From the NCBI GenBank assembly GCA_030695905.1, contig JAUYOL010000001.1, positions 66,023 to 130,022 of the forward strand: a stretch of DNA of 64,000 nt, given 5' to 3'. Both the position numbers and the translations under genes were made by a program. The notes under the pieces were generated by a model. The model was not told the origin of the DNA. It made no database searches and saw only the letters and a list, made by a program, of their open reading frames with translations. Shown here one piece after another: positions 28,217-53,693 of the stretch (positions within the stretch are counted from its first letter, which is position 1; every line of letters begins with the position of its first letter). This DNA comes from Candidatus Omnitrophota bacterium. GTDB taxonomy: Bacteria > Omnitrophota > Gorgyraeia > 2-01-FULL-45-10.

Positions 28217-28912
28217 GTGAACATTATGAATGGCCATACAAATGGAACGAATATTTTTGCTGATAAGGCGACTTTCATTCTAAGGAAGATGCTGTCTAAT
28301 CCCGAAAAGAAGTGGGTTACGCGCGACTTTATGGGTGATGACGGGGTAAGCCTTGGAATGGCGCAGGGAGTGCTTGAAACGATGGCGAAGAAGGGCTACA
28401 TCGAGCGGGTCAAGCGCGGTCCCGATAGCTATGCGCTTCTTACGAATAAAAACGAACTCATTAGCGATTGGGTATCGGAGTATCGGTTTGACCTAAACGA
28501 AGTCGATGTTTATTATTCCCCTGATAAGAATATTCTATTGAAGCTTAAGGATTATCTGAAAGATAAACAATACGCGCTCACTCTTCATTCGGGCGCTAAC
28601 CTGATAACATCTTTTGTGGTTACAGATCAAATCGATCTGTATTTTAAGCCGGAAAACTGGAAGAAAGAGATCCTTGAGTTGCGACAACAGCTTGACTTAA
28701 AGGAGCTTGTAAGAGGCGGTAATGTCCGCATTATTTGCCCCGCGTACAAAAATAGCGTATTTTATGGGGCCCGGACAATAAAGGGATGCAAAGTTGTTTC
28801 CGGTCTACAGCTTTACCTTGATCTCTACAATTTTAAACCTCGTGGCCGCGAGCACGCGGAATATCTGAAAAAAGCATTGGAAGAGAAGGGGAAGAGCTTG
28901 TATGAATCTTGA
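28217..28912 (+). CDS. AbiEi-like wHTH antitoxin/transcriptional regulator
   Basis: N-terminal winged-helix. Overlaps the downstream nucleotidyltransferase gene by 11 nt. Upstream palindromes. Confidence 0.45.
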   Translation: MNIMNGHTNGTNIFADKATFILRKMLSNPEKKWVTRDFMGDDGVSLGMAQGVLETMAKKGYIERVKRGPDSYALLTNKNELISDWVSEYRFDLNEVDVYYSPDKNILLKLKDYLKDKQYALTLHSGANLITSFVVTDQIDLYFKPENWKKEILELRQQLDLKELVRGGNVRIICPAYKNSVFYGARTIKGCKVVSGLQLYLDLYNFKPRGREHAEYLKKALEEKGKSLYES

Positions 28913-29699
28913 GAAAATCGAAGCCGTATTTTTTAGTGTGCTTGAAGATATCAGCGGTTATCTTCCGGATCTCACGCTTGTCGGAGGATGGATGCCGTAC
29001 ATCTATTCAAATTTTCTTTGGAAAACATCCGTAAAAAATCCAGTAACCACGGTTGATATTGATTTTGGCGTGGATCAATCCGTTACCGGAGATTATTCAA
29101 AGACAATTTTTGAAACGCTTTCCCCTTTGGATTACAAAGAGCGTCATTTTAAGATGGATAGGCCGTTTCCTGTAGTGCTCTATAAAGAAAAGGTTCCGGT
29201 AGAGTTTATTACTTATCCTACCGTCGATATTAAAGCGATCGAGAAGATGGTGGGTCAGCAAATACAGATAAACAAGATCGATAAATTTGATTTTCTATTA
29301 AAACACCGGATCTCGATAAACGTTCAGGGTAAGCAAAAGAACAAAAGCTATCTTATCAATTGCCCAAGCCCATCGGCTTTTTTGTATCACAAGGGAGCGA
29401 CTTTTATTTATAGGGAGAACGAAGAGAAGCGGGCTAAGGATTTGTACTACATGTACTTCATCTTGCGGTACGCGCCTGACATCGATGCTATTTTGAAGGA
29501 AGTATCCCAGTACAGAGAAAAAGGGCATTTAATGGATGTGCCGGATAATATAAATAAGTTCTTCGAAAGAGTTTCAAGTCAAGGGTGCCTTTTGATAGAA
29601 GAGGAAAACGGCCCCGATGAATACATTCATGATGTTCGGCAGGACATATTTGATAGATTTAATGGGCTGAAGGAAGCATTAAAAGGGATCGGCAAGTGA
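28902..29699 (+). CDS. AbiEii-like nucleotidyltransferase (DUF1814-type toxin)
   Basis: Pol-beta NTase motif GGW ... TVDIDF (GSx9-13DxD). Confidence 0.5.
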   Translation: MNLEKIEAVFFSVLEDISGYLPDLTLVGGWMPYIYSNFLWKTSVKNPVTTVDIDFGVDQSVTGDYSKTIFETLSPLDYKERHFKMDRPFPVVLYKEKVPVEFITYPTVDIKAIEKMVGQQIQINKIDKFDFLLKHRISINVQGKQKNKSYLINCPSPSAFLYHKGATFIYRENEEKRAKDLYYMYFILRYAPDIDAILKEVSQYREKGHLMDVPDNINKFFERVSSQGCLLIEEENGPDEYIHDVRQDIFDRFNGLKEALKGIGK

Positions 29700-30550: not shown

Positions 30551-30588
30551 GCTGGCGTAGCTCAGTTGGTAGAGCAGCGGTTTCGTAA
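30551..30588 (+). mobile_element. attL: 38-nt 5' fragment of tRNA-Thr(CGT), identical to 53618-53655, ending at anticodon loop
   Basis: gctggcgtagctcagttggtagagcagcggtttcgtaa is identical to the 5' part of the intact tRNA-Thr. It is preceded by a TATAAT (30531-30536) that fits the original tRNA promoter. Confidence 0.7.
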
Positions 30589-31634: not shown

Positions 31635-31853
31635 ATGGAGGATAAAATGTCAAAGATAGGAGCCTCACACATGGATATCGTAAAAAAATTAGAGCTGTAT
31701 CGCTTGGAGAATAAGATTACCCAGCAGGCATTGGCTAAAGAGCTTGACGTAGCCTTTTCTACTGTCAGTAGGTGGTTTAACGGCAAGACAGTTCCCAGCA
31801 AAATTCAGCAGTATCATGTAGAAAAGTATCTGAGGAAGAAGGTGGGAGTATGA
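31635..31853 (+). CDS. XRE-family HTH regulator
   Basis: ITQQALAKELDVAFSTVSRWFNG HTH_3 motif. Confidence 0.7.
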   Translation: MEDKMSKIGASHMDIVKKLELYRLENKITQQALAKELDVAFSTVSRWFNGKTVPSKIQQYHVEKYLRKKVGV

Positions 31854-33205
31854 AATTCACAGAAAGCGAAATCGTAGAGCTCAAAACATCGACATCAGAG
31901 CTCAAAGAGGCGATCATTTCATTGGGGGCCATGTTGAACAAGCATGGCAAGGGCACAGTTTATTTCGGCATCGGTGATAATGGTGCCGTTTTGGGACAAC
32001 AGATCGGCAAATCAACCATAAAAGATGTTTCAAAAGCCATCAGTGATTGGATTGAACCCAAGGTTTATCCTGATATTCAGGCCAAGAAAATACAAGGCAA
32101 GGACTGTATTGTTGTTAAAGCCAGCGGACATGATGTCGTGTATTCGGCCCGCGGACGATACTATTTACGGATGGGAGAGGAAGATAAGAAACTTTCGGTT
32201 GATGAACTAAGGCATCTGGTTGAAAAGAAAAATAACTATGCCTATTCATGGGGTGCTGAGCTTTCTAATTTTTCACTATCAAAGGTTAGCGTTGCGACGG
32301 TTAAGAAGTTTGTTGAGAAAGGCCGCAAGGCCGGACGTATTGAATACGCTTATGATTCGGCGCATAACGTCCTTAATAAAATTCACCTACTCAAGGGTAA
32401 AAGATTGCTTAACGCGGGTCGGGCGCTATTTTGTGAAGACAGTGGTGTTGAAGTTCAAGCGGCTGTCTTTGCCGGTAAAGATAAAACGACATTCGTCGAT
32501 ATTCAGAGTTTTCGCGGGCCTCTTTTTAGTTTGATCGAACGGTGCGAAGTTTACGCCAAAGAACACATTAACTGGCGCGCTGATCTTTCCGGTAGCACAA
32601 GGGTGGAAATCCCGGAGGTTCCCGTCCGTGCTATGAAGGAAGCTATTATCAATTCCCTTTGCCACAGAGATTTTTATAATCCTAAAACGAACGAGATCGC
32701 TATTTATCGAGATAGGATCGAAATTTATAACCCCGGCCAGTTTCCTTTTGACCATGATCCGGACGAGTTCATCGCAGGTCATGGTAAAAGCTATCCCAGA
32801 AACCCACTGATTGCGGAAGCTTTTTATCTGGCTAAGGATATTGAGCGGTGGGGGTCAGGCTTGCGGCGTATCAAGGAAGAATGCGATGCCGCGGGTGTGA
32901 AGGTTGCCTTCGAGAAGGTATCTACCGGCTTTCAGGTGACGTTTTATCGGTCAGAAGCCGACACTACCCCTCAAAAGGGCGGAGAAACTGGGGAAAAAAC
33001 TAGGGTAGAAACTAGGGTAGAAACTAGGGTAGAAATAATCAAAATTATGAAAGAAAATCCTCGCGTTACAGTAGGAGATATTGCGAAGGCGACGGGATTG
33101 ACCATAAAAGGCGTTGAGTGGAACATCAAGGATCTTAAGCAGAAAGGCTTGATTAAGCGTATCGGACCTAATAAGGGCGGCCATTGGGAAGTGGTGACGC
33201 AATAA
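31850..33205 (+). CDS. AlbA_2 (Schlafen-like divergent AAA)/HATPase_c_4 protein with C-terminal wHTH
   Basis: N-terminal ESEIVELKTS...GKGTVYFGIGDNG pattern of the AlbA_2 domain. C-terminal HTH. Internal TRVE x3 repeat. Confidence 0.55.
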   Translation: MKFTESEIVELKTSTSELKEAIISLGAMLNKHGKGTVYFGIGDNGAVLGQQIGKSTIKDVSKAISDWIEPKVYPDIQAKKIQGKDCIVVKASGHDVVYSARGRYYLRMGEEDKKLSVDELRHLVEKKNNYAYSWGAELSNFSLSKVSVATVKKFVEKGRKAGRIEYAYDSAHNVLNKIHLLKGKRLLNAGRALFCEDSGVEVQAAVFAGKDKTTFVDIQSFRGPLFSLIERCEVYAKEHINWRADLSGSTRVEIPEVPVRAMKEAIINSLCHRDFYNPKTNEIAIYRDRIEIYNPGQFPFDHDPDEFIAGHGKSYPRNPLIAEAFYLAKDIERWGSGLRRIKEECDAAGVKVAFEKVSTGFQVTFYRSEADTTPQKGGETGEKTRVETRVETRVEIIKIMKENPRVTVGDIAKATGLTIKGVEWNIKDLKQKGLIKRIGPNKGGHWEVVTQ

Positions 33206-35189: not shown

Positions 35190-36725
35190 ATGGCAAAAAA
35201 TAAGAATACAAATGGTGATTTGAACTTTGAGCCGAAGCTGTGGCAGACGGCTGATAAGATGCGTAATAACATGGACGCTGCCGAATATAAGCATGTGGTG
35301 TTAGGGCTTATCTTCCTTAAATATATATCAGATGCCTTCAGTGAGCTTTATCAGAAATTAGCTGGTACCAAAGGCGCGGACGCTGAGGATCCGGACGAAT
35401 ACAGGGCCGAAAACGTATTCTACGTCCCAAAAAAGGCCCGATGGGATTATCTGCAGAAAAACGCGAAACAGCCCACCATTGGCAAGTTTATTGATGATGC
35501 AATGGATGAAATCGAGAAGGATAACTCCACCCTGAAAGGCGTTCTTCCTAAAAACTATGCCCGGCCGGCCCTTGATAAACAGCGTCTCGGAGAACTCATC
35601 GACCTTATTGGGACAATTGGCCTTGGTGACAAAGAAAATCGAAGCAAGGACATCTTGGGCCGTGTATATGAGTATTTCCTGGGCCAATTTGCGGATGCGG
35701 AGGGCAAGAAAGGCGGACAATTCTATACTCCGCGCAGTATAGTGCGCTTGCTTGTCGAAATGCTCGAGCCATATAAAGGTCGGGTATTTGATCCATGCTG
35801 CGGATCGGGCGGCATGTTCGTCCAAGGCGAGAAATTTGTGCAGATACATGGTGGCCGAATTGGCGATATTGCCGTATATGGACAGGAATCAAACCAAACA
35901 ACATGGCGTCTTTGCAAAATGAATCTTGCTATTCGTGGTATCGATGCCAACATCGCATGGAACAACGAAGGCAGCTTCTTAAATGACGCTCACAAGGACC
36001 TTAAGGCCGACTTTGTCATCGCTAACCCTCCGTTTAACGACAGCGACTGGAAGGGCGAACTTTTACGCGAAGATATTCGCTGGAAATATGGGACGCCACC
36101 TATGGGCAATGCAAACTTTGCATGGGTTCAACACTTCATTCATCATCTTTCACCCACAGGGCTGGCTGGCTTTGTCTTGGCTAATGGCGCTATGTCGTCT
36201 AACGCTTCAGGTGAAGGCGATATCAGAAAAAGTATCATAGAAGCAGATATCGTGGATTGTATGGTGGCCCTACCCTCACAGCTTTTCTATAACACTATGA
36301 TACCGGCATGTCTTTGGTTTATCGTGCGTGATAAGAAAAATCACAAATTCAGAGATCGACGCGGTGAAACACTTTTTATCGACGCTCGCAATATGGGCGC
36401 CATGATCGACCGCAGGCACCGCGAACTTACGGACGACGATATTACCAAGGTCGTTGGCACATATCATGCTTGGCGTAGCAAGGGTGGTAAATATAAGGAT
36501 ATAGCCGGATTCTGCAAATCAGCGAAACTATCAGAAATTCAAAAGCATGGCCACATTCTCACCCCGGGCCGTTATGTGGGGGCTGCTGAGGTTGCGGAGG
36601 ACGATGAGGTATTTGAAAATAAGATGAAGCGTCTCACGGGTGAGTTGTCAGAGCAGTTTAAACAATCGGATAAGCTTGAGGCAGAGATCAAAAAGAATCT
36701 CAAAGGCTTAGGATATGAAATTTGA
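35190..36725 (+). CDS. hsdM: type I restriction-modification N6-adenine methyltransferase subunit
   Basis: HsdM N-terminal domain. Catalytic NPPFN. SAM motif [10 protein letters not shown]. Confidence 0.9.
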
Positions 36726-36755: not shown

Positions 36756-37619
36756 ATGGCGGTTTTTATGTATGCATATAATTTTAAACCGAAACAGAAA
36801 GCGATAAATTTTAAAGAAATTTTTGTTGTAATGCCATTCGGAAGCAAATACGACGATATTTATGAGAAATTGATTGTGCCAGCAACTGAAAAAGCGAATG
36901 GCATACTGTCTTATAGTGGTAGTCAGCGGTTGCTTCCCTACAGATCCAAAGATGATATACGAACAACTTCTGGCTGGATTAATGTATTAGAGCATTTATT
37001 AACGGCGCAAATAGTTCTCGGGGTCCTTACTGATAATAATCCTAATGTGTTTTATGAGCTGGGGATAGCGCACGCTACAGAACCAATTACTCGTCAAATC
37101 CTCGTAGCGCCGAAACAATATGAGCGGCAATTTGATTTAAAAGATCTTATTTACTACGAGTATGAAGATGAGCTTGATAAAAGTATTGACCCATTGGCTA
37201 GTCGAATAGCAGACGCTATCAAAAGCTACAACATTGATGAGGAAAAAAAGATTAACCAAGCACGAATGCTCATCGGTCCTTATGAATTTGAGGTGCTGAT
37301 GACGCAGGGAAGCAAAAGGAACTTTGTATTGCATACATCAGTAAAAGGCCGTGAAGACTACGAGAAAGAACTTTTGGCAAGGTTGGGCGAAGAACATTTA
37401 AAAGGAGCGTTTGAAAGGCATGTTCCTGCAATAGCCAATCTTTGTAGCCACGGGTTTCTTGGCCTTCACACATCTTCCGAACGAAAGGACGATAAAACCG
37501 TTGTTCATTTTTCTTATCATTGGACAGAGTTAGGCAATAGCTTACTTTATTTTATGAAATTAATACCGATTGAGGAATTGAGAGCTAGGCGCGATGGAAT
37601 GCCAGCATATTTTGATTAA
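36756..37619 (+). CDS. hypothetical protein inserted between hsdM and hsdS; N-terminal TIR-like / nucleoside 2-deoxyribosyltransferase-like pattern
   Basis: IFVVMPFGSKYDDIY ... VLGVLTDNNPNVFYELGIAHA resembles the NDT/TIR-like (SLOG-fold) signature. Weak assignment. Confidence 0.45.
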   Translation: MAVFMYAYNFKPKQKAINFKEIFVVMPFGSKYDDIYEKLIVPATEKANGILSYSGSQRLLPYRSKDDIRTTSGWINVLEHLLTAQIVLGVLTDNNPNVFYELGIAHATEPITRQILVAPKQYERQFDLKDLIYYEYEDELDKSIDPLASRIADAIKSYNIDEEKKINQARMLIGPYEFEVLMTQGSKRNFVLHTSVKGREDYEKELLARLGEEHLKGAFERHVPAIANLCSHGFLGLHTSSERKDDKTVVHFSYHWTELGNSLLYFMKLIPIEELRARRDGMPAYFD

Positions 37620-37623
37620 ATCT

Positions 37624-38937
37624 ATGAACAAAAATTTCAAACAAACAAAACTTTGTGAAACTCCTGAAGGGTGGGATATCCAAGCCATTGCGGATTTACC
37701 CATTGAGATTATTGATGGTGATCGAGGGCTAAATTATCCTAAGAAAGATGAATTTAAAAAACAGGGGTTTTGTCTATTTCTTAGTACTAAAAATGTCCCA
37801 GGAGAACATTTTGATTTTACCGAAGCTGATTTTATTAACGAGGAACGGGATCGTCTCTTACGAAAAGGTAAATTAAAAAAAGAAGATATTGTCCTTACAA
37901 CGCGTGGCACAGTAGGTAATATTGCGTATTATCATGAACAAATTCCTTACGAACACATTCGTATAAATTCTGGAATGGTTATAATTCGCAATATGGGAGA
38001 CAAATTTGATACGGGTTATCTATGCCATCTTTTGAAAAGCCCTATAGTGAAACAGCAATACCTTAGCTTTGCTACTGGATCGGCACAACCACAGTTGCCG
38101 ATCAGGGATATTAACAAAATTAGACTAACAGTACCTTCTATTTTAGAACAGCGTGCCATTGCCAAAATCCTTTCTGACCTTGATGATAAAATAGAACTCA
38201 ATCACCGGATGAACAAAACCCTCGAATCCATCGTGCAGGCGACTTTTAAGCGGTGGTTTGTAGATTTTGAATTTCCAGATGAACATGGTAATCCATATAA
38301 AACATCTGGTGGAAAGATGACTGACTCTGATCTCGATGAGATCCCTGATGGATGGACTGTTAAGGAAATATCTGATTGCGGAGAAATTGTATGTGGAAAA
38401 ACACCTCCGACGGTTGACAAAGACAATTATGGCAATGATTTATTCTTTATAACCATACCAGATATGCGCGGGCAAGCGTTTGTAATAAAAACGGAACGAA
38501 AACTCTCTAAAAAAGGAGCTTCGACGCAAAATAAAAAAGAATTGCCGGCTCTAACTATTTGCGTAAGTTGCATTGCGACCCCCGGCCTAGTTTCCTTGAC
38601 CAGCGCCCCCAGCCACACAAACCAACAAATTAACAGCATTGTTTGTAATAAAAATATTAGCCCATTTTTTATGTACTACACAATGCTTTATAAGAGTGAA
38701 GAAATAAAGACTATGGGCCTTGGTGGTACCGCAACGCTAAATCTTAATACGGGAAATTTTGCGCGCATTAAAATAGTCGTACCGGAAAAGACAATCACGG
38801 ACGCTTTTCATAAAACAGCAACACCTTTTATGGAAAAGATTTTGTCTAATTTGAAAGAAAATGAAAGTCTTTACATTATTCGCGGTTCTCTTTTACCAAG
38901 GTTAATGTCAGGAAAAATAAGGCTAGGTAAAAATTAA
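37624..38937 (+). CDS. hsdS: type I restriction-modification specificity subunit
   Basis: Two target-recognition domains separated by conserved coiled regions. Possible alternative start at 37594. Confidence 0.75.
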   Translation: MNKNFKQTKLCETPEGWDIQAIADLPIEIIDGDRGLNYPKKDEFKKQGFCLFLSTKNVPGEHFDFTEADFINEERDRLLRKGKLKKEDIVLTTRGTVGNIAYYHEQIPYEHIRINSGMVIIRNMGDKFDTGYLCHLLKSPIVKQQYLSFATGSAQPQLPIRDINKIRLTVPSILEQRAIAKILSDLDDKIELNHRMNKTLESIVQATFKRWFVDFEFPDEHGNPYKTSGGKMTDSDLDEIPDGWTVKEISDCGEIVCGKTPPTVDKDNYGNDLFFITIPDMRGQAFVIKTERKLSKKGASTQNKKELPALTICVSCIATPGLVSLTSAPSHTNQQINSIVCNKNISPFFMYYTMLYKSEEIKTMGLGGTATLNLNTGNFARIKIVVPEKTITDAFHKTATPFMEKILSNLKENESLYIIRGSLLPRLMSGKIRLGKN

Positions 38938-38955: not shown

Positions 38956-40416
38956 ATGGTGAAAAGTTCTTGGACTTCAGATGATACAAAAACATTAGAT
39001 ATTTTACTGGATTACCAAAATTCTCGAATAGACGCCAATGAGAAATCATCGCAGGAAGAAATAAGAAAGTTATTATTAAAGACAGAAGATGTCATTGACC
39101 TTGCTAATAGCATAATCGCTACTAAAGGGCTTTTGCGAGGAGAAAGAATAATTATTGTTAAAGAAGATGGCAATTCTATAGTCCTAGAAGGCAATCGCAG
39201 AACTTGTGCTTGCCAACTATTACTAAGCCCAGAATTAATTCCAAAAGAATTTAGAACAAAATTCCCTATTTGTCATGACGGAGGGATAAAAAAAGAACTA
39301 GAGCATTTAAAATCTGATATTGCGCCAGATAGATTGGCAGCGGAAATTACTATTACCAAGAGGCATACTGAACCGGGAGTTTCGCAATGGACTCCCATTG
39401 CGAAACAAAGAAGAATTACGCGTCTTGTTGAGGCAAGGAGATCTATTGAAGAGTTAATGTCTGAATTTGGAATGACACGGTCAAACATTTTGAAAACTTT
39501 GAAAGATTATCATATTTTTCAATATGCAAAAAATCTTTCCATTTGGAACAAGGTTGAAAAAGATATTTTGAACGATCCAACTCTCTCAATCAATCCTTTC
39601 ACTCGGTTTTTTGATTTAAAGGGTGTTAAGAAAGCCTTGGAATTGAAACATAAAGAAACTGGCGAATTGGAAATCGAGATAAAAAAAGAACTTTTTGACA
39701 AAATCATAGCTTTTATTGCCCGCGAATTTTTAATTCCCGATAAAGGCACAAGTAAGCTTGGTGCAAATACTCGCACAACGCCAGAAGAGTTGTTTCAAAG
39801 TATTTCTTCACATGATAAAGATATAAGAGCATTTCTAAAAAAGAAGCTAAAATTGGATAATTTGAAGAATAAGGAAAAAGCTAAATCTGGGGCCGAATCA
39901 GCAGAACAAACAGGTACGGCTAGGACTTCAGGTGCAACAGCTTCTACGCAAACATCGGCAAAGTCTGGAAAGTTCTTTGAAAATCTTCCCTGTCCTTTAA
40001 AAGATAACCAGCTATTGTTAGTTGTGAATGAAATATCGGATATAAATTATAAGAAATATCGCCTATCAGCAACCTTTCTTGTAAGAGCTTTAGTTGAAAG
40101 AATCTTGAATCATTGCATCGACAAATATGCGCTTAAGAAACAATTGCTAAAGGAGTTTTACACTAAGCGCAAGGGGTGTAAAGGCATAGAACCAGGGCTA
40201 GAGTTTGTGGTTGATTTTTGTATAAAAAATCATGATCAAATGTTCAATGTAAATACAGTACGAAATATTCTAAGAAAATGGAAAGGGGATAAGGATCTAT
40301 TAGATATTATCATTCATGGTCGTTGGGCCAATCCTAGCATTACAAACCTTGAACATTTCGCATCTCTCATTCGACCTACGGTTGAACAAATTCTTAGCGG
40401 GAATGCTTTGAAATGA
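38956..40416 (+). CDS. ParB/Srx-like N-terminal domain protein (486 aa) embedded in RM operon
   Basis: VLEGNRRTCA matches the ParB-N/DGQHR-like DGxxR signature. Low-complexity Ser/Thr/Ala linker. Unknown C-terminal domain. Confidence 0.45.
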   Translation: MVKSSWTSDDTKTLDILLDYQNSRIDANEKSSQEEIRKLLLKTEDVIDLANSIIATKGLLRGERIIIVKEDGNSIVLEGNRRTCACQLLLSPELIPKEFRTKFPICHDGGIKKELEHLKSDIAPDRLAAEITITKRHTEPGVSQWTPIAKQRRITRLVEARRSIEELMSEFGMTRSNILKTLKDYHIFQYAKNLSIWNKVEKDILNDPTLSINPFTRFFDLKGVKKALELKHKETGELEIEIKKELFDKIIAFIAREFLIPDKGTSKLGANTRTTPEELFQSISSHDKDIRAFLKKKLKLDNLKNKEKAKSGAESAEQTGTARTSGATASTQTSAKSGKFFENLPCPLKDNQLLLVVNEISDINYKKYRLSATFLVRALVERILNHCIDKYALKKQLLKEFYTKRKGCKGIEPGLEFVVDFCIKNHDQMFNVNTVRNILRKWKGDKDLLDIIIHGRWANPSITNLEHFASLIRPTVEQILSGNALK

Positions 40417-41342
40417 AAATCGAGCAAGAAAATAAAGCTCTGAATAATAAAACAATAACAACCAATCTGAGCCCATTAAGGTATCCAGGTTCAAAGCGGA
40501 AGATAGCTTTGTATATTAGAGAAATCCTTCAACATAACAAGCTAACTCCCGATCTCCTTGTGGAACCATTTGTCGGTGGCGGTAGCATTTCTCTATTTTT
40601 TATTGCCAATAATTTTGTAAAAAAAATTATTATTTCAGATAAAGATAGATTAATTAGCAGTTTTTGGAAGGTAGTTTTTTCTAATCCAGACAGCATCAAC
40701 CGTTTCATTCAACATGTAAAAATTAATCTTAAAAATTTTGATAAGTATAAAAATATCGCAAAAGATACTGAGAATTATAATGAAACTGAATTAGCAAAAG
40801 CATGCATTTTTCTCAACAGAACTAGCTTCTCAGGCGTTTTAGCTAATCCTGCTGGCCCTCTTGGCGGAAGAGAGCAGAGGTCGGACTACAAAATCGATTG
40901 CCGCTTTAATAGAAAAACCATCGTAAAGAAAATTAGTTGCATCGCATCTTTTAAGAGCAGGGTTATTGTTCGTAATGGCCACTGGAAAGATATAATAAAG
41001 TATGCAGAAGGTTGGCGCAAGGATAATAAGGGGTATAAAAAAACATTCATATACCTAGATCCGCCTTTCTATTTAAAAGGAGAAAGTTTATATAGAAATT
41101 ATTTTGAAACCAATCAACACGAAGAACTATCTAAAGAATTGGAGAAAATAACCTGCCCATGGATTTTAAGTTATGATAATGTCTTACAAGTTAGAAAACT
41201 ATATGAGAATTTTAAAAACATCGTTTATATCGACATGCCATATTCAATTAATTCGCATGCTAATAGAATTGAAAAAGAATTGATAATTACTAACTTAAGT
41301 TTGCCCAAGGTAAACGAAATGAGCTTTCATAATAAGCAATGA
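40413..41342 (+). CDS. D12-class (Dam-like) N6-adenine DNA methyltransferase
   Basis: RYPGSKRK ... EPFVGGGS (motif I) and YLDPPF (motif IV). Confidence 0.7.
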
Positions 41343-44300
41343 AAAAAATTACAGAATATGAAATCGAGCAGGTCGCCTTAGATATCCTTTCAGAGCTTAA
41401 ATATAAGGTTATCTACGGGCCGGATATTGCCCCGGATGGGCCGAAGCCAGAGAGACAGAGTTATGCCGATATTGTCCTACTTGTTAGGCTTCGCGAGGCA
41501 ATAAATCAGTTTAATCCTAATATTCCTGCCGAAGCAAAGGATGAAGCAATAAAGCGGATATTACGGACTGAAAGCCCTGACCTTGTAATAAATAATCATC
41601 GCTTTCACAAGATGCTTGTTGATGGTGTTGATGTAGAATATCGCAAAGACGGCCGGATTACCGGCGATAAGGTATGGCTCTTCGACTTTGCAAATCCGAA
41701 TAATAATGAATTCTTAGCGATTAACCAGTTTACCATTATCGAAAATAATATTAATCGCAGGCCTGATATTATTCTCTTTGTGAATGGTCTGCCGATCGTG
41801 GTAATAGAGCTAAAAAATCCGGCTGATGAAAATGCCACTACCTTAACCGCTTTCAAACAATTCCAAACGTATAAACTCCAGATACCCTCTCTTTTTAAGT
41901 TTAACGAGATTTTAGTCGCAAGCGATGGTATTGACGCAAAAGCTGGGACGATAACCTCTGACTGGGAGCGATTCTTGCCATGGAAGACGATCGATGGCAC
42001 CGAGAAGGCATCAAAGGTAATGCCACAGATAGAGGTTTTATTAAAAGGCATGTTTAATAAAAAGGTTTTGCTCGATCTTATCCGGTACTTCGTCGTCTTC
42101 GAGCAGGATAAGGATACTAAAGACAATACGGTTAAAATTTCAAAGAAGATTGCGGCTTATCATCAATATCATGCCGTTAATAAAGCCATCGACGCTACTA
42201 TTAAGGCATCCCGAGCCAGGGGTGATAAGCGTTGCGGTGTAGTTTGGCACACACAGGGTTCGGGCAAAAGCCTTATTATGGCCTTTTATACGGGTAAACT
42301 TGTTTTGAGTTTGGACAATCCCACAGTAGTTGTCTTAACCGATAGAAATGACTTAGATGATCAGCTCTTCGGCACATTCTCCCGATGCAATGAATTGTTG
42401 CGACAAGCGCCAGCGCAAGCAGAATCTCGTGCAAAACTGCAAGAATATCTTAAAGTTTCATCCGGCGGCATTGTATTTACCACTATTCAAAAATTCTTCC
42501 CGGAAGAAAAAGGCGACCAATACCCTCTTCTATCCGAACGTCGTAATATAATTGTCATCGCCGATGAGGCTCACAGAAGCCAGTATGATTTTATTGATGG
42601 TTTTGCCAAGCACATGCGCGACGCCCTACCAAATGCTTCATTTATCGGATTTACTGGCACACCCATAGAACGACACGATCGTAACACTATTGCTGTCTTT
42701 GGTGATTACATTGATATTTATGATATTGAGCAGGCAGTTAACGATGGCGCTACAGTTCGGATATACTACGAGAGCCGGCTTGCTATGCTTGAGCTAAAGG
42801 ATGAGGAACGGCCTAAGATTGATCCCGAGTTTGAAGAAGTCACTGAAGGCGAAGAGTTCAAGAAAAAGGAAAAGCTGAAGACCAGATGGGCCCGGCTTGA
42901 AGCCATTGTTGGAAGTGAAAAGCGTATTAAGCAGATCGCCAAAGATATAGTGAATCATTTCGAAAGCCGTCTTACGGCTGTCGAGGGTAAAGGTATGATT
43001 GTCTGTATGAGCCGGCGAATAGCAATTGATCTTCATAATGAAATTATTAAGCTAAGACCTCAATGGTATAACAAAGATGATGACAAGGGCTTCCTAAAGG
43101 TTATTATGACGGGCTCTGCCAGCGACCCTGTCGAGTGGCAAGAACATATCAGAAATAAACAAAGGCGCAGGGATATTGGTGATCGTATGAAAGATCCAAG
43201 CGATCCGCTGAAATTAGCAATCGTGCGGGATATGTGGCTTACAGGATTTGATGCACCGTCGCTTCATACAATGTATATAGACAAGCCAATGCGGGGCCAC
43301 GGTCTTATGCAAGCTATTGCGCGCGTAAATCGTGTATTTAAGGATAAGCCGGGTGGTCTTGTAGTCGATTATTTAGGTATAGCCGATGATTTAAAGCGTG
43401 CGCTCGCAGAGTATACAGAAAGCGGCGGTAAAGGCAAGCCAGCGTTTAAGCAAGAAGACGCGGTGGCTTTAATGCTCGAGAAATATGAAGTCGTTTGTGG
43501 GATGTTTGATAAATTCAATTATAAAAAATTCTTTCCCGCCCCTGTAAAAGACAAGATGTCTATTATAACACTGGCACAGGAGCACATATTAAAGCAGAAA
43601 AATGGCAAGGAGCGATTGATGGCCTATGTGACACAACTCTCGCAGGCCTTCGCGCTTTCGGTACCGCATAAAGAGGCCTTAAAAATAAGGGATGACGTGG
43701 GATTCTTTCAAGCAGTCCGGGCCCGGCTGGCAAAGTATGAGACCGGCACAGGCAAAACCGAAGAAGATCTCGACTCGGCAATAAAGCAAATTATCTCAAA
43801 GGCTATCATTTCGGACAAAGTAATTGATATATTCGAAGCAGCCGGTCTTAAGAAGCCGGACATTTCTATTCTGTCGGACGAATTTTTGGCCGAAGTTAAA
43901 GGGATGCCACATAAGAACCTTGCCTTCGAACTTTTAAAGAAATTACTCAATGATGAAATCAGGACGAGATCTCGCAAAAATCTTATTCAGGGCCGATCAT
44001 TCGCTGAAATGCTCGAGAAGGCCATTAAGAAGTACCAGAATAAGGCCATAGAAGCAGCCAAAGTCATCGAAGAACTGATTGAGCTTGCCAAAAAGATGCG
44101 CGAGGCCGATAAGCGTGGCGAAGATCTCGGGCTGAATGAGGACGAGATTGCGTTTTACGATGCTCTGGAGGTTAATGACAGCGCTGTAAAGGTATTAGGA
44201 GACGAGATCTTAAAAACTATTGCCCGGGAGCTCGTTCAGACGGTTCGTAATAATGTTAGTATCGACTGGACCTTAAAGGAAAGCATTCAGGCAAAGCTAC

Positions 44301-44932
44301 GGGTTATGGTAAAAAGGATATTACGCAAGCACGGCTACCCTCCGGATAAGGAAAAGAAAGCCACCGAGACTGTTTTAGAGCAGGCTACCTTATTAGGCAA
44401 GGACTGGGCCGAGAAACCAGAAGAATCCGTAGAAAAATCAGATCTATTCTTTAGCGATGTGATCGATAAGGCGACTTTCGAAGAGGATTATTTGCCTATT
44501 TATGATTTGCAGGCGGTTGCGACATCGTTCCGAGAGCAAACCACACCAACAATTAAAGGCTGGAAGCCGATAAAGGGCCGTAATATTAATAAAGATATGT
44601 TTATCGCTCAGGTTGTCGGTAAATCTATGGAGCCAACGATACAAGATGGCAGCTGGTGTATTTTCCGTTTTGATCGTGGCGGTTCGCGCAATGGTTTGGT
44701 AGTGCTTGCCGAATCGCGGTTAGTATCTGATCCGGAAACGAGTCAAAACTTTACCATTAAGCGCTACAAGAGCGAAAAAGAAGATCTCGGCCAGGGCCAG
44801 TGGAGACATAAACGTATTACCCTATCGCCGGACAATAAGACTTTTAACGATATTGTGCTTGAAAACGTTGCCGGTGACGATTTTCGGATTGTAGCTGAAT
44901 TTATAGAGATATTGAAGATTAGGAGTATTTGA
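41339..44932 (+). CDS. hsdR: type I restriction enzyme R subunit fused to C-terminal LexA/S24-like peptidase domain
   Basis: Res-III/DEAD motifs (GSGKS, DEAH) and helicase C. The last ~147 aa (44489-44932) carry GKSMEP ... KRYK ... the S24 Ser/Lys dyad pattern. Confidence 0.8.
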
Positions 44933-45013
44933 CCAAGGGTGATTAGATAGGTGCCTTGAAAGATAGTGGGAAACGTATCGAGTAAAATATTTGTAGCCAA
45001 AAGGTATATTTTC

Positions 45014-46768
45014 ATGACAATGGTTGCAGTATGTCTTTTCAAAGAAGGTGGCGTATTAATCTCCGATTCTCGGGCAACCAAGGATAATAATGGTAAATAC
45101 GCATTTAGCGATACTCTTCAAAAAATTCTCTACATTCGCAAAAATATTGCTCTTTCATATGCAGGTGACGTTCAAATTGCCGGAGATGTTGCAAGAGAAG
45201 TACGGTTAAAGGTTATCGGAGATGACAATCTTAAAGAGCCGCAAACCCTAGCGGCGAAAATACCGACAATTGCCACCCTATCATATCTCAAATATGTATT
45301 TATTAGAGGTAGGCCCTGCGCTGTATATTTACTGCTGGCAGGAGTTGATTCTTCGGGAAAAACATATGCATGGGTTTTTAAGTCACCCGGTTTTAAACCA
45401 ATAAAGATTGAAAATGGTTTCGATGTAATTGGTTCGGGAGAGGTAGTTGTTCCATATTTGGAAAAAAGTTATAAAAATATAGATAGCTCCCATAACGATC
45501 TTAAGTCTAAAGCAGATGCATTAATAGTCGGGCTTGAGAGTGAGCTACAAAAACACGATGTAAACACAGTCGGTGGACTTTTTCAGGTTGTTCTTCTTAC
45601 CCCCGAAGGAATACGTCCCCTTCGTTATGGGTTCATGGACTTAGATCCACTTAAAAGTGGTGATGCAAAAAGTATGGAATTGATCAAGGGGAAATGGACA
45701 CAGACAAATGAGGCAACGCGAGAAAAAGTAGAGCTTTTAGAACCATCTAAACTTGTCACCAATGTTTTTAAAGAGACGCAATTTCATGAATATGCGCCAC
45801 CCAATCAGGATAAAAAAATTCCAAAATGGTATTCATACTATTTTATTACATGTTCAAAAGTCAAAAGGGATATTACTACGACAGAATTTCAGGGTGTATT
45901 AACACAAATAGCCAGTTTAAGATATCCGGCCACTATACCCATTATTGCATCCATGGGATTTTGGGGTACTGCCGGTGAGAATCAAATAGAATTGCGAGTG
46001 GAAAAAGACGGAAAACAAGAAACGATTTATTCCAAAAAAATCCATACAGAATATTTACCCGAAATAGTTGAATTGGATGCAGAAATAAAGCTTGTTATTA
46101 GTTCGCCAGGGCCCGCATTCTTAGAGTTCTTAATTAATAAGCAGGTTCTTGCTAGAAAAGCTCTTTATTTTGGCAATCTCAACGGCATTCCAAAATCCGA
46201 TGGGGATAAAGAAGAATTTCTCAGAGAGCGTCAATCACAGCTCACAGAGGAACACCGACAACTTTCGGATGCTTTTTTGAATGACAAAAATTCTGTTACT
46301 GAATATTTCGTCTTATGTGAGAACTGCATTCATGAGGGAAATGTAATTAAATTTATCAATGAAATGAAAGCGGTTTATTGGAAATCATACCCGCTACCTT
46401 TACGGGTATATATTGCTAGTGCAATCAGAATGCCAAAAGGCAAACATAGTATCCGCATAGAGTTAGTGAATGCGGCGACTCGATATAACTCAAACATAAC
46501 AAACACTACTGTAGAAAACACATCCGATTGCTTAGTTACTCCTATCCATGGCGAAATGGTTGTGAATATACCAGAGCCCGGTATTTATTTTTTCAATCTA
46601 TACGTTGATGGCAAATTTATTACAAGTGCGCTTCTTCCAGCGGAGCTCTCGAAAGCCAAATATTCTTACAGTCTGACAGATGAGGGAGAAAAAATGGTTG
46701 AGTCTGGAGAGTTAATAATTTTGCCAAGACGGTCTATTTTAGAAAGCGAAATAAAGAATAACAAATAA
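45014..46768 (+). CDS. HslV/proteasome-beta-like Ntn-hydrolase domain fused to ~400-aa unknown C-terminal domain
   Basis: N-terminal MTMVAV ... ISDSRAT ... K ... SYAGDVQIAGD ... IGSGE aligns with HslV Thr1/Asp17/Lys33/GSGG. No adjacent HslU. Confidence 0.55.
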   Translation: MTMVAVCLFKEGGVLISDSRATKDNNGKYAFSDTLQKILYIRKNIALSYAGDVQIAGDVAREVRLKVIGDDNLKEPQTLAAKIPTIATLSYLKYVFIRGRPCAVYLLLAGVDSSGKTYAWVFKSPGFKPIKIENGFDVIGSGEVVVPYLEKSYKNIDSSHNDLKSKADALIVGLESELQKHDVNTVGGLFQVVLLTPEGIRPLRYGFMDLDPLKSGDAKSMELIKGKWTQTNEATREKVELLEPSKLVTNVFKETQFHEYAPPNQDKKIPKWYSYYFITCSKVKRDITTTEFQGVLTQIASLRYPATIPIIASMGFWGTAGENQIELRVEKDGKQETIYSKKIHTEYLPEIVELDAEIKLVISSPGPAFLEFLINKQVLARKALYFGNLNGIPKSDGDKEEFLRERQSQLTEEHRQLSDAFLNDKNSVTEYFVLCENCIHEGNVIKFINEMKAVYWKSYPLPLRVYIASAIRMPKGKHSIRIELVNAATRYNSNITNTTVENTSDCLVTPIHGEMVVNIPEPGIYFFNLYVDGKFITSALLPAELSKAKYSYSLTDEGEKMVESGELIILPRRSILESEIKNNK

Positions 46769-49313: not shown

Positions 49314-51689
49314 ATGGAAGTCGAGAGAAGAGTAGAGAAGAGATGGATCAGCGAGAATATTCCTGCCGAATTAAAGGATCTGCCGATCTGGGTTGGTTTT
49401 AAGTTTATTCCGCAGGAAGGTCAAAAGCCCCGCAAAGAGCCGTTCAATGCCGCGACCGGCGGCAAAGCCTGTTCGAATAATCCAAAAACATGGCGGTCAT
49501 TTGATGAGGTTATCGGAAGGGCCGAATCAATGCATTTTAATGCCATTGGGATTGGGCTTTCTGAGCCGTACGTTGGCGTAGACCTCGACCATTCCGTTGT
49601 TGATGGAGATATCCAGCCATGGGCCCAAAAGATCATATCGATCATCGATAGTTATACCGAATTCTCTCCCAGCAAAACAGGTGTTCATATTCTTTGTAAA
49701 GGTACGCTTCAAAAGGGACGCAAATTCAGCGCACTTAATATCGAAATGTATCAGAAGACCCGGTTTTTTACGGTTACCGGAGACGTTGTGCCTGAATGCA
49801 GGTCAGAGATCATGGATCGAAGCGGGCAGATCACGAAATTATTCGAAGAGTGTGAGCAGAAGGACAATGAGAAGAGGCAATCAAAATCAATCCTCGACCG
49901 CATATTGAAAAGCCAAGACGCGGAGAAGTTTCAGAAGCTTTTCTCGGGCCAGTGGCAGGATTTATATCCTTCTCAGTCTGAGGCAGACCTTGCGTTGTGC
50001 AACAAGCTGGCCTTTTGGACCGGCAAGGATCCGGCGCTTATGGATTCGCTCTTCCGTAAATCCGGCCTTATGAGGCTCAAGTGGGATGAGAAGCATTTCG
50101 GTGACGGCAGGACATACGGCCAGTCGGTAATAGAGAAAGCGATTAGCGGTTGCCGAGATGTTTATAGCGGCTCTCAAGAGATAACCACAAAACATAAACT
50201 TACACAGGGCGAGATCATCACCCGTGATTGTGAAGAGAAGATTACGGATTTCTTCAGGGATCAGCATGGCAATACTTTCGTCGTGCTTCCGGTTGAGGGC
50301 CACCTTGAGGTATGCCCGACATCAAGCGGTCGCTTTAGGAATTGGAAAGCAACACGTTTTCGTGAGAGGTTCGGTGTCCCGCCAAAAAACGAAGCCATTA
50401 TTCAGGCGCGGATTCAAGTGGAGGCGCGCTGTGGGTGCGGCAAGCAGGTGGAATTATTTAATCGTATAGGCTGGCATGAAGGCAAAATCTATTATGACCT
50501 TACTACTCCTGATTATCGTGGTGTAGCTATTGATGAAAACGGCTGGAATGTCGTCTTCTTACCGCCAATATTCAGGCGTTACCAGCATCAAGCACAGCAG
50601 GTCATTCCGGTTAATGACGGAGATCCGAAAGAGATCTTACGCTTTTGTAATGTGGGTCCGGATGATCACTGCCTTTTTATGGTCGCGATCGCGTCTTTCT
50701 TCATTCCGAACATCCCACATGTGATCATAAGCCAGACCGGCGAGCAGGGTTCCGGCAAGTCCAACAATTCCCGCAAGATCAAGGGTTTGGGCGACCCATC
50801 ACGCGTTATGCTCATCTCGACTCCAAAGGACTTGGAGCAGGCGCAGATGACGGCCGAGAAGCACTGGATCAGCACTTTCGACAATATCTCCAAAATTCAT
50901 GAATGGTTTAGCGACTTCCTGTGTCGTGGCGTTACCGGCGAGGGCGACATGAAGCGCAGTCTTTATACCAATGACGATGAGTTTATCCGGTCATACCGCC
51001 GTTGTTTTGTCTTAAACGGCATCGGCGTTTCAATGTGGCGCGGGGATTTGCTCGACCGCGCGGTTATCTTCGATATACCGGTCCTAAAGGATGCCCGGCC
51101 GGAGCGAGTCATGGATGACGAATGGCAAAAAGCCTTGCCCGGGATCCTCGGAGGCTTCTTTACAGCTATTTCAAAGGCTATGAGAACAGTTTCGCAAGTT
51201 ACCGGCCATGAGAAGTTCCGCATGGCCGATTTTGCCCAGTGGGGCGGCGCTCTGGCTCAAGAGCTCGGCTATTCGAGAGACGAATTCTTTAAGAAATATC
51301 AGGAATCCGTCAAAGGTAAATGGCAGGACACAGCCGAGGACAGCGTCTTTGCCAAAAAGATAATGGATCTTATGGATAGGCGCAACGGCTATTGGGAGGG
51401 TTCAGCGGCAGAGCTTTTGCATGAGATAACGCCGGATAGCGGTGAAGAGAAGGGCATACCCAAAACAGCCAAGTGGCTTTCAACTGAGCTGGTGCGTATC
51501 GCTCCGGTCATGCGTAATGTTGGGGTTGATATTGTGAAGAATGAGAAGCGCGAGCCGGGCACCGGCAGGCGTATCTTTATACTTAAAAGAACAGGGCCAA
51601 AGAGCTGTGAGGATCGGTGTGAGCAGAGTGTGAGCAGCGGCTTGTTTTGTGAGGATCGCGTGGGGGTAGACAGTGATCGGCCGTTCTGA
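49314..51689 (+). CDS. prim-pol (bifunctional primase/polymerase)-type replication protein with P-loop NTPase domain
   Basis: N-terminal LPIWVGFK ... VDLDH ... SPSKTGVHIL prim-pol pattern. GEQGSGKS Walker A in the middle. Confidence 0.65.
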   Translation: MEVERRVEKRWISENIPAELKDLPIWVGFKFIPQEGQKPRKEPFNAATGGKACSNNPKTWRSFDEVIGRAESMHFNAIGIGLSEPYVGVDLDHSVVDGDIQPWAQKIISIIDSYTEFSPSKTGVHILCKGTLQKGRKFSALNIEMYQKTRFFTVTGDVVPECRSEIMDRSGQITKLFEECEQKDNEKRQSKSILDRILKSQDAEKFQKLFSGQWQDLYPSQSEADLALCNKLAFWTGKDPALMDSLFRKSGLMRLKWDEKHFGDGRTYGQSVIEKAISGCRDVYSGSQEITTKHKLTQGEIITRDCEEKITDFFRDQHGNTFVVLPVEGHLEVCPTSSGRFRNWKATRFRERFGVPPKNEAIIQARIQVEARCGCGKQVELFNRIGWHEGKIYYDLTTPDYRGVAIDENGWNVVFLPPIFRRYQHQAQQVIPVNDGDPKEILRFCNVGPDDHCLFMVAIASFFIPNIPHVIISQTGEQGSGKSNNSRKIKGLGDPSRVMLISTPKDLEQAQMTAEKHWISTFDNISKIHEWFSDFLCRGVTGEGDMKRSLYTNDDEFIRSYRRCFVLNGIGVSMWRGDLLDRAVIFDIPVLKDARPERVMDDEWQKALPGILGGFFTAISKAMRTVSQVTGHEKFRMADFAQWGGALAQELGYSRDEFFKKYQESVKGKWQDTAEDSVFAKKIMDLMDRRNGYWEGSAAELLHEITPDSGEEKGIPKTAKWLSTELVRIAPVMRNVGVDIVKNEKREPGTGRRIFILKRTGPKSCEDRCEQSVSSGLFCEDRVGVDSDRPF

Positions 51690-52512: not shown

Positions 52513-53616
52513 ATGATATATAAACGAGGCAAAACATGGTACATAGGTTACTCCGCTAACGGGCGGTTGATGCGGGAAGCGGTTGGTGAGTCGCGGAAAT
52601 TCGCCGAGCTTGTTCTTGGCAAGAAACGGGCCGAGGTCAGAGAGGGCCGTTTCCTCGATGTCAAGAAACACGCGAAGATCAAGTTTGAGGATTTCGCTAA
52701 GACATTTGTGGAGCTCCATTCAAAGGTTAATAAAAGGCCCAGAGTCGCCAAGAGAGACGAACAACTCATAAAACGCCTGTCCGGGCATTTCGCGGGCAAG
52801 TATCTGTACGAGATAACATCCAAGCAGATAGAAGAATATAAAAAAGTCCGTAAAGAGACTAAGCTCAAGGATAAGTTTATTGCCGCGGCGACCGTAAACA
52901 GAGAATTGGCATGTCTCAAGTGCATGTTTAATAAAGCGATCGAATGGGGCAAGGCAGATGAGAACCCTGTCCGTAAGGTGAAGTTATTTAAAGAGAATAA
53001 TAAACGCTTGAGGTTTCTTGAAAGAGAAGAGATACCAAAGTTCTTGGATAGCGCGGCCCCGCATCTAAAGCCGATCCTGATAGTCGCATTATTTACCGGT
53101 ATGCGTAAGTCGGAGATCCTGACTCTCCAATGGAAGAATATCAACTTTGGGCAGGGCATAATATATTTGCTCCACACTAAGAATGGCGAGCGCAGAGAAG
53201 TGCTGATGAACGATATCGTCAAAAAGACACTTATTGCCGTTCCTAAAAATCCCAGCAGCCCATATATATTCTGTCACGAGGACGGTAAGCCCTACCTGAA
53301 TGTCCGAAAATCTTTTGACGCAGTTTTGAAAAAATGTGATATAATTGACTTCAAATTCCACGATCTGAGGCACACATTCGCCTCGCACCTAGTTATGTTC
53401 GGTATAGACATAAAGACAGTGCAGGAGCTGATGGGCCATAAGTCCATTGAGATGACGCTCCGCTATTCGCATCTATCGCCGGATCACAAAAAGAGGGCCG
53501 TGGAGATCTTAGGAAATAGAATTAGCACAAATATAGCACAAACGCCTAAAACGGCAAATACAAGCGAGATAGGCGAATCGCCTAACTCGTTGAAAGAATT
53601 AGAGTTAGTGCATTAA
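52513..53616 (+). CDS. int: tyrosine-type site-specific integrase
   Basis: C-terminal catalytic motifs HDLRHTFAS and LMGHKSIEMTLRYSHL. Ends 2 nt before tRNA-Thr. Confidence 0.9.
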   Translation: MIYKRGKTWYIGYSANGRLMREAVGESRKFAELVLGKKRAEVREGRFLDVKKHAKIKFEDFAKTFVELHSKVNKRPRVAKRDEQLIKRLSGHFAGKYLYEITSKQIEEYKKVRKETKLKDKFIAAATVNRELACLKCMFNKAIEWGKADENPVRKVKLFKENNKRLRFLEREEIPKFLDSAAPHLKPILIVALFTGMRKSEILTLQWKNINFGQGIIYLLHTKNGERREVLMNDIVKKTLIAVPKNPSSPYIFCHEDGKPYLNVRKSFDAVLKKCDIIDFKFHDLRHTFASHLVMFGIDIKTVQELMGHKSIEMTLRYSHLSPDHKKRAVEILGNRISTNIAQTPKTANTSEIGESPNSLKELELVH

Positions 53617-53617
53617 T

Positions 53618-53693
53618 GCTGGCGTAGCTCAGTTGGTAGAGCAGCGGTTTCGTAAACCGCAGGTCGATGGTTCAACTCCATTCGCCAGCTCCA
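53618..53693 (+). tRNA. tRNA-Thr (anticodon CGT); attR within 5' half
   Basis: Cloverleaf with loop ttCGTaa, T-loop TTCAACT and CCA. Confidence 0.85.

Follow-up and report, generated by a model that had tools for sequence, protein, structure and literature searches.

The window analyzed here is the whole stretch of 64,000 nucleotides (nt) from a Candidatus Omnitrophota bacterium (contig JAUYOL010000001.1, positions 66,023 to 130,022), and it contains a type I restriction-modification (RM) operon whose restriction subunit, HsdR, ends in a domain of the S24 peptidase family, the family of LexA, lambda cI and UmuD. The gene is one uninterrupted open reading frame (ORF) of 1197 amino acids (aa) at positions 41339-44932 of the forward strand, with the S24 tail as its in-frame end, and its parts are the following:

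41339-44416, forward strand: HsdR core, aa 1-1026, with a PD-(D/E)xK nuclease, a superfamily 2 (SF2) motor and a C-terminal helical domain (TIGR00348, 2e-191)
44417-44488, forward strand: module linker, aa 1027-1050, delimited with an alignment of 30 module sequences (A1) and column statistics
44489-44530, forward strand: predicted cleavage-site region, aa 1051-1064, 14 residues ending in LQAVA/TSF, delimited by the family motif
44594-44914, forward strand: S24 catalytic core, aa ~1086-1192
44930-44932, forward strand: stop codon of hsdR::S24, the module being the extreme C-terminus

The HsdR part, aa 1-1026, is complete without the tail. The protein scored 638 bits against TIGR00348 (cut-off 284.55), Pfam placed HSDR_N at residues 4-210, SWI2_SNF2 at 275-510, T1R_D3-like at 607-678 and T1RH-like_C at 695-1019, and the PADLOC model REase_I spanned residues 3-1022. 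The D...ELK nuclease motif, GSGKS and DEAH were visible in the translation. With this score, the nuclease and SF2 motifs, and hsdM and hsdS as neighbors, the protein is a type I R subunit. It resembles the canonical HsdR with a HindI-type C-terminal domain (TIGR00348, PF11867) in its complete core and its hsdM-hsdS-hsdR operon, and differs from it in the additional 171-residue S24 module and in a PD-Lambda-5 pair that is inserted in the operon.

The initial annotation had read the end of this protein as a complete S24 domain with a Ser-Lys dyad, preceded by a linker with the cleavage site, and translation of positions 44489-44932 of the forward strand, the last 148 codons, returned exactly the residues that it had quoted (NGLVVLAE, FTIKRYK and RITLSPDN). 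When the isolated 147-aa tail was compared with Pfam, Peptidase_S24 (PF00717) was found with 38.0 bits (E 1.5e-9), and in the whole HsdR the same model matched residues 1066-1187 with 32.0 bits (E 1.1e-7); both values were above the gathering cut-off of 23.3. The nucleophile is Ser1096 in GKSMEP (nt 44624-44626) and the general base is Lys1141 in FTIKRY (nt 44759-44761), as verified at the codon level. Alignment A1 was then compared by hhalign with the sequence of Escherichia coli LexA. VVGKSMEP paired with VSGMSMKD, FTIKRYK with VTVKRLK, and a 13-residue stretch of the window with LLPENSEFKPIVV; Ser1096 fell on LexA S119 and Lys1141 on LexA K156, the homologous positions. The same procedure gave no reliable alignment with UmuD. 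A structure comparison was required because the sequence search of the PDB gave no clear match: phmmer with the single sequence found nothing at E ≤ 1, and a profile search returned only marginal matches, with E values of 0.66-0.96. The AlphaFold2 (AF2) model of the module had a mean predicted local distance difference test score (pLDDT) of 76 and a predicted template-modeling score (pTM) of 0.71, and its first 38 Foldseek matches in the PDB were all LexA, lambda cI or UmuD. The tail stayed below the NCBIfam cut-offs for LexA (TIGR00498, 18.6 versus 110.95 bits) and UmuD (NF007621, 16.3 versus 110 bits), and no PADLOC model matched it. Because these equivalog thresholds were not reached and the N-terminal partner is HsdR and not a winged-helix DNA-binding domain, as in LexA, the tail cannot be classed as an orthologue of LexA or UmuD. 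Its profile, fold and catalytic residues place it in the S24 family, and we have very little doubt about this identity or about the fusion being real.

LexA, lambda cI and UmuD (MEROPS S24, PF00717) are autoproteolytic switches stimulated by RecA filaments on single-stranded DNA (ssDNA), here called RecA*, and the tail in the window has the same profile, fold and dyad positions. It differs from them in its N-terminal partner, which is an ATP-dependent restriction nuclease here and other defense enzymes elsewhere, rather than a polymerase subunit or the DNA-binding domain of a repressor. Its sequence is only remotely similar to theirs. In addition, the module is prolonged by a linker with a conserved 10-residue motif, and bears insertions after the NG strand and after the Lys, with invariant residues of its own.

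The module comprises aa 1027-1197 (nt 44417-44929), that is, the 171 residues after the junction with HsdR, so the initial annotation had located the tail rightly but had set its beginning about 24 residues too far downstream of the actual start at aa ~1027 (nt 44417). HsdR homologues without S24, 74-83% identical over the C-terminal domain, terminate at ...KDWAEK, which is the junction, and because they stop exactly there, the tail has been added to an enzyme that is complete without it. The many database entries of this module family that seem to be stand-alone 'S24 family peptidases' of 105-180 aa could suggest that a frameshift during sequencing or assembly merged hsdR with a small adjacent gene for an S24 protein or repressor. 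This explanation has a negligible probability. The ORF is continuous, and an identical 1197-aa product with the same neighbors was found on a Logan contig of SRR13727529. An orthologue with 86% identity across the module, and with the same gene downstream, was found in another Omnitrophota metagenome-assembled genome (MAG; locus L001). When 80 genomic loci were analyzed from stop to stop, the module lay within one long ORF in nearly all complete cases, with more than 30 full-length single-ORF fusions in other genomes. We thus rejected a frameshift or a two-gene artefact, a risk that the initial annotation had itself raised, on the strength of the continuous ORF, the second assembly, the fusions in other genomes and the homologues that end at the junction. 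Together with the significant S24 match and the alignment of the Ser and Lys with those of LexA, this leaves none of the outcomes that the annotation had named as refuting it. The module itself lacks a DNA-binding domain, and the stand-alone entries that were inspected follow fragmented or degraded effector genes: P0026 follows a shattered hsdR, P0007 a 3.3-kb gap without genes, L012 has an overlapping out-of-frame ORF of 948 aa, and a Halomonas SLFN-g3 gene is split. Separate S24 genes acting as a component in trans were also rejected, because the inspected cases are tails of broken effector genes.

The survey for the same fusion, which the initial annotation had suggested for HsdR homologues, showed that the module is not confined to HsdR, a point that the annotation had missed. 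When a profile was run against 1.84 billion representative proteins, 1996 matches lay at E ≤ 1e-3, of which 1300 (clusters at 50% identity) also passed E ≤ 1e-10 and 297 passed E ≤ 1e-30, and at least 587 genomic loci were confirmed with one genome scanned per species. Among the matches listed, the carriers were Omnitrophota, Planctomycetota, Bacillota, Nitrospirota, Acidobacteriota, Deltaproteobacteria-type MAGs and others, with a few archaeal-labeled bins. PF00717 was detected in all 24 family members scanned, and in 360 of 370 members no more than 15 aa lay between the end of the module and the C-terminus. Pfam analysis of representative carriers identified HsdR proteins of three or more kinds, one of them with an inserted DUF559; Type ISP enzymes (Mrr_cat_2, helicase, coupler and Type_ISP_C) and MmeI/Eco57I-type enzymes; helicases, namely the very common SLFN-g3/DUF2075 proteins of ~800 aa, two ResIII families and a 2050-aa DEAD protein with MZB/DUF1998; and, in fragment carriers, Mrr_cat, DpnI_C, RE_endonuc and TnsA-like nuclease domains. 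Modules 60-89% identical were found on unrelated partners, with 89% identity between the tail of one HsdR (L040) and that of a Type ISP enzyme (L050), and in 25 of the 60 classified loci the nearest module sat on a different effector class. The AVAT, AAAS and AAAG subtypes of the site tracked the module lineage and not the effector. Because such similar modules sit on unrelated partners, the module is a portable C-terminal tail, repeatedly exchanged among DNA-targeting defense enzymes of at least 10 classes. As the module is not specific to HsdR, its explanation must be generic and not type I-specific. No match was found in annotated phage genomes, and annotated plasmids gave a single one, on a Halomonas chromid. 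In a minority of carriers (P0253, P0293, P0307 and P0309), ~180-200 extra residues extend beyond the S24 module; in the last three of these, the extension contains repeated, winged-helix-like ...LG[FY]xRTG... units, and cleavage at the S24 site would free module and extension together.

The linker contains a conserved 10-residue motif at aa 1033-1042 (nt 44435-44464). This motif, [E/K]-K-S-D-L-F-F-S-D-[V/I]-[I/V], lies ~10-20 residues upstream of the cleavage strand and accompanies S24 across unrelated effectors; it was also present in Mrr, TnsA-like, RE_endonuc and HsdR fusions, and was degenerate in one SLFN-g3 fusion. It may loosely resemble clamp-binding peptides of the xxDLF type. In the AF2 model, the linker (model residues 11-30) had pLDDT values of 67-88, and was followed by a predicted strand at residues 31-39 and a low-confidence loop at 41-47.

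Cleavage is predicted at the bond Ala1061-Thr1062 (nt 44519-44524), which is not the canonical Ala-Gly; the Thr in place of Gly at P1' had also escaped the initial annotation. The presence of a cleavage site in the upstream region, as claimed there, agreed with a conserved A-x-A site 35 residues before the Ser: Ala1061 stands at this distance from Ser1096, equal to the A84-S119 spacing in LexA. Column statistics from 387 non-identical modules gave the site motif L-P-[VLI]-Y-x-L-x-A-[A/V]-A-[G/T/S]-x-F. The Ser, the Lys and the Gly of GxSM were each conserved in 99% of these modules; P1 was Ala in 92% and Cys in 7%, P3 was Ala in 88%, P1' was Gly in 54%, Thr in 39% and Ser in 6%, and Phe stood two residues after P1' in 97%. 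The corresponding sites are VAA/GEP in LexA, VQC/GFP in UmuD and VQA/GMF in cI, and Cys at P1 is the UmuD variant. Since the Ser and Lys are retained, the Thr subtype of the window is not a decayed copy. The conservation of the Ser and Lys (99%) and of the A-x-A site across the 387 modules strengthened the reading as a self-cleaving domain. On the predicted features, all the parts of a self-cleaving S24 protein appear to be present in the window, with Ala-Thr as the one deviation, and the module is probably competent for autoproteolysis.

The remaining genes of the operon, and the other features around it, are listed below.

28217-29699: AbiEi/nucleotidyltransferase (AbiEii-like) pair, just beyond the left repeat of the island
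31850-33205: SLFN AlbA_2, HATPase_c_4 and winged helix-turn-helix protein
35190-36725, forward strand: hsdM, type I methyltransferase subunit and first gene of the operon (Pfam N6_Mtase 2.6e-107, HsdM_N 3.2e-28)
36756-37619: ORF of 287 aa between hsdM and hsdS, overlapping the hsdS start by 26 nt
37594-38937, forward strand: hsdS, specificity subunit (Pfam Methylase_S 1.3e-36, two stretches)
38956-41342, forward strand: PD-Lambda-5 A/B pair, a 486-aa protein and a 309-aa D12-class adenine methyltransferase (PADLOC PD-Lambda-5_A 1.9e-31, PD-Lambda-5_B 2.9e-81; Pfam MethyltransfD12)
44966-46768: protein of 600 aa, 34 nt downstream of hsdR::S24, with an N-terminal proteasome-beta-like N-terminal nucleophile (Ntn) hydrolase domain (PF00227, 2.4e-8)
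49314-51689: NrS-1-like primase-polymerase, within the ~23-kb element
52513-53616: tyrosine integrase, abutting the tRNA

The 287-aa ORF had no match in Pfam, NCBIfam or PADLOC, and a single weak relative was found for it in the 80 loci. The PD-Lambda-5 pair sits between hsdS and hsdR, the last gene of the operon, in the orientation of the operon, with overlapping start and stop codons, and the GC content drops to 0.36-0.37 there; this pair is context, outside the S24 module. The C-terminus of the 600-aa protein scored 25.3 bits for DUF6941, just under the Pfam gathering value of 27. This proteasome-beta-like/DUF6941 protein was considered as a conserved partner protease and rejected, being found only in the near-identical elements L001 and L081 among the 80 loci searched and not with other S24 fusions, and its gene is probably independent. 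Similarly, PD-Lambda-5 A/B, TIGR04255, orf170 and the primase-polymerase showed no co-occurrence with the module as partners in the 80 loci. Relatives of the SLFN AlbA_2 protein occur near S24-HsdR genes in L005, L008, L017 and L039. An exact 38-bp direct repeat (30551-30588 and 53618-53655), identical to the first 38 nt of tRNA-Thr(CGU), flanks an element of ~23 kb at about 30.55-53.62 kb; the match is, unusually, to the 5' half of the tRNA and not to the 3' half. The RM/S24 operon therefore lies on an integrated element, consistent with a mobile defense island.

The initial annotation had proposed that self-cleavage couples restriction to RecA* or DNA damage, or that the domain acts as a sensor, and this remains plausible. 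S24 proteins cleave themselves at Ala-Gly through the Ser-Lys dyad, stimulated by the RecA filament (PMC13148647). We propose that a cellular signal would push the site into the active site, and that the module would then cut its own Ala1061-Thr1062 bond and free the S24 tail from the enzyme. By analogy with the characterized RecA-dependent S24 proteins, the likeliest signal would be RecA*. Cleavage would turn the nuclease OFF, which is the direction that we favor because the cores of close relatives work without the tail, so that it is more probably a removable control on a liability than a required activator, because the partners share the capacity to harm the host chromosome, and because the LexA/cI precedent offers routes through dimer loss and degrons. 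One route to inactivation would be the loss of an S24-mediated dimerization needed for cooperative double-strand cutting. In the other, the new C-terminus ...LQAVA-COOH (-A[A/V]A in the family) would act as a ClpX-type degron and deliver the large fragment to ClpXP; the two routes are not mutually exclusive. Cleavage of LexA uncovers latent ClpX signals, and ClpX binds the N-terminal fragment of cI only after cleavage (PMC10584840).

When restriction damages the host chromosome, or repair creates unmodified sites, RecA* would be produced and would destroy the enzyme responsible. Such an arrangement would be an autoimmunity fuse, a negative feedback functionally equivalent to restriction alleviation. 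RecA* loads at Chi-processed breaks and thereby marks damage to self-DNA, and it is for this reason that the feedback would be fuse-like. As for the degron, Neher et al. in 2003 are said to have described VAA of LexA(1-84) and LAA of ssrA as ClpX signals, to which -QAVA is similar. Taken as a whole mechanism, this is in our view the best explanation of the data, a serious candidate that falls a little short of being probable. The role as an OFF switch or fuse is put forward somewhat more tentatively. More tentative again, although possible, is the generalization to a widespread class of defense enzymes with a plug-in LexA-like tail as a self-destruct fuse for RecA* or self-damage, which would give type I, ISP, IIL, IV and helicase-type nucleases a common intrinsic alleviation, possibly via a ClpX degron.

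Several observations weigh against this interpretation. Beyond the domain identity, the cleavage, its trigger and its consequence are what we infer. Confidence in the AF2 model is moderate (pLDDT 76) and falls below 50 in the cleavage loop. At P1' the window has Thr, and the Foldseek matches include LexA crystal forms titled as non-cleavable that carry mutations of the Gly, G85D (1jhf) and G91D (8b0v); a Thr-type site may cleave slowly or require another trigger. An -A-x-A terminus is also demanded by S24/S26 specificity, so that any likeness to a ClpX degron may be a coincidence. Mrr and the DpnI-like enzymes, which are methyl-directed partners, have no obvious need for classical restriction alleviation. 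The family has invariant residues that are absent from LexA (W, GGSR, DPET and W-x-H), which could form a different ligand or partner site. Finally, modules were found on the archaeal-binned contigs L014 (MAG JBDRCQ010000017) and P0033 (Heimdallarchaeota, partial), where binning errors are possible. To our knowledge, archaea lack RecA and LexA, and these modules, if genuine, are hard to square with a trigger that is only RecA*.

The evidence from structure and conservation applies equally to a switch in the opposite direction, in which the tail would keep the enzyme inhibited or unassembled until a phage-linked signal (RecA* formed on ssDNA or replication intermediates of the phage, or DNA damage from the infection) sets off autocleavage and frees the nuclease or helicase in its active form, as in the conversion of UmuD to UmuD'. 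UmuD is the textbook precedent for activation by S24 cleavage, and several partners may need such licensing, namely the SLFN-g3/DUF2075 and DEAD-MZB helicases, and the small Mrr, TnsA-like and RE_endonuc nucleases. However, the close HsdR homologues (74-83%) are complete without a tail, so that the core needs neither the tail nor its removal. Type I, ISP and IIL enzymes are, moreover, already constitutively competent and distinguish self from non-self by methylation, and an extra step would slow restriction. We consider an activation switch unlikely. A sensor independent of RecA is less likely still; here, cleavage of itself or in trans would respond to a phage protein (antirepressor-like), to a stalled or colliding state of the motor, or to a small molecule. 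It would accommodate the invariant positions that are not in LexA (W47, F60, G87, R89, D103, Y115 and H129, alignment numbering), the non-canonical Thr or Ser at P1' in 45% of modules, and the archaeal binning of some members. RecA-independent LexA-like proteins exist, IrvR being an example (PMC7101444), and LexA and cI are capable of trans cleavage, according to work cited in PMC10584840. Yet no conserved partner gene was found among the 80 loci, the adjacent proteasome-like gene occurring only with L001 and L081, and the cleavage strand is kept in cis at a LexA-like spacing, which favors self-cleavage over a purely trans-acting protease.

It is also conceivable that the S24 fold serves only for dimerization or docking and is never cleaved. 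The C-terminal domains of LexA and UmuD' are dimeric, type I, ISP and IIL enzymes must cooperate in pairs to cut both strands (both are textbook knowledge), and the Thr at P1' might prevent cleavage in the subtype of the window. A pure scaffold would nevertheless be expected to lose the Ser, the Lys, GxSM and A-x-A, as inactive S24/S26 homologues did, and each of these is ~90-99% conserved in the 387 modules, the Thr subtype included; a non-proteolytic role is thus very improbable.

The proposed self-inactivation has a counterpart in E. coli, where HsdR of EcoKI is removed by ClpXP during restriction alleviation; the degron is unidentified there, and why alleviation is unseen in other RM classes is an open question (PMC4231737). 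The likeness to the alleviation of EcoKI/EcoAI-type HsdR (types IA and IB) would lie in a post-translational, proteolytic control of the R subunit that shields the host chromosome once damage or recombination has given rise to unmodified sites (PMC4231737, PMC12707154), and the predicted post-cleavage -AVA end resembles the latent ClpX signal of LexA (PMC10584840). In E. coli, ClpXP is a protease that acts in trans on translocating HsdR, which has no S24 domain, whereas in the window the proteolytic element is built in. Other RM classes, in which no alleviation has been described, carry the S24 tail as well, and the contribution of ClpXP here would be a presumed one. In the literature searched by full text and targeted look-ups, which included a 2025 review on RM biology and papers on YprA helicases and on the diversity of bacteriophage exclusion (BREX) systems and covered few subscription journals, no S24 domain fused to HsdR or to restriction or defense enzymes was found, and the 2025 review mentions neither S24 nor LexA. 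Database annotations label fragments as 'S24 family peptidase' or 'LexA', and the domain match itself was already visible. The autoproteolytic switch is of a known kind, and its architecture and proposed role are new.

Only in a few type I systems of E. coli is it understood how restriction enzymes spare their own host after damage, recombination or transfer, and an S24 tail on at least 10 enzyme classes offers a concrete, testable mechanism of control. If cleavage activates these enzymes instead, the tail would represent a new principle of infection sensing, and if the proposed inactivation is true, it would provide synthetic biology with a portable, signal-responsive tag for protein inactivation. 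The LexA/cI/UmuD paradigm would then reach beyond transcription factors and one polymerase subunit to enzymes, and the SOS signal would be linked directly to innate immunity.

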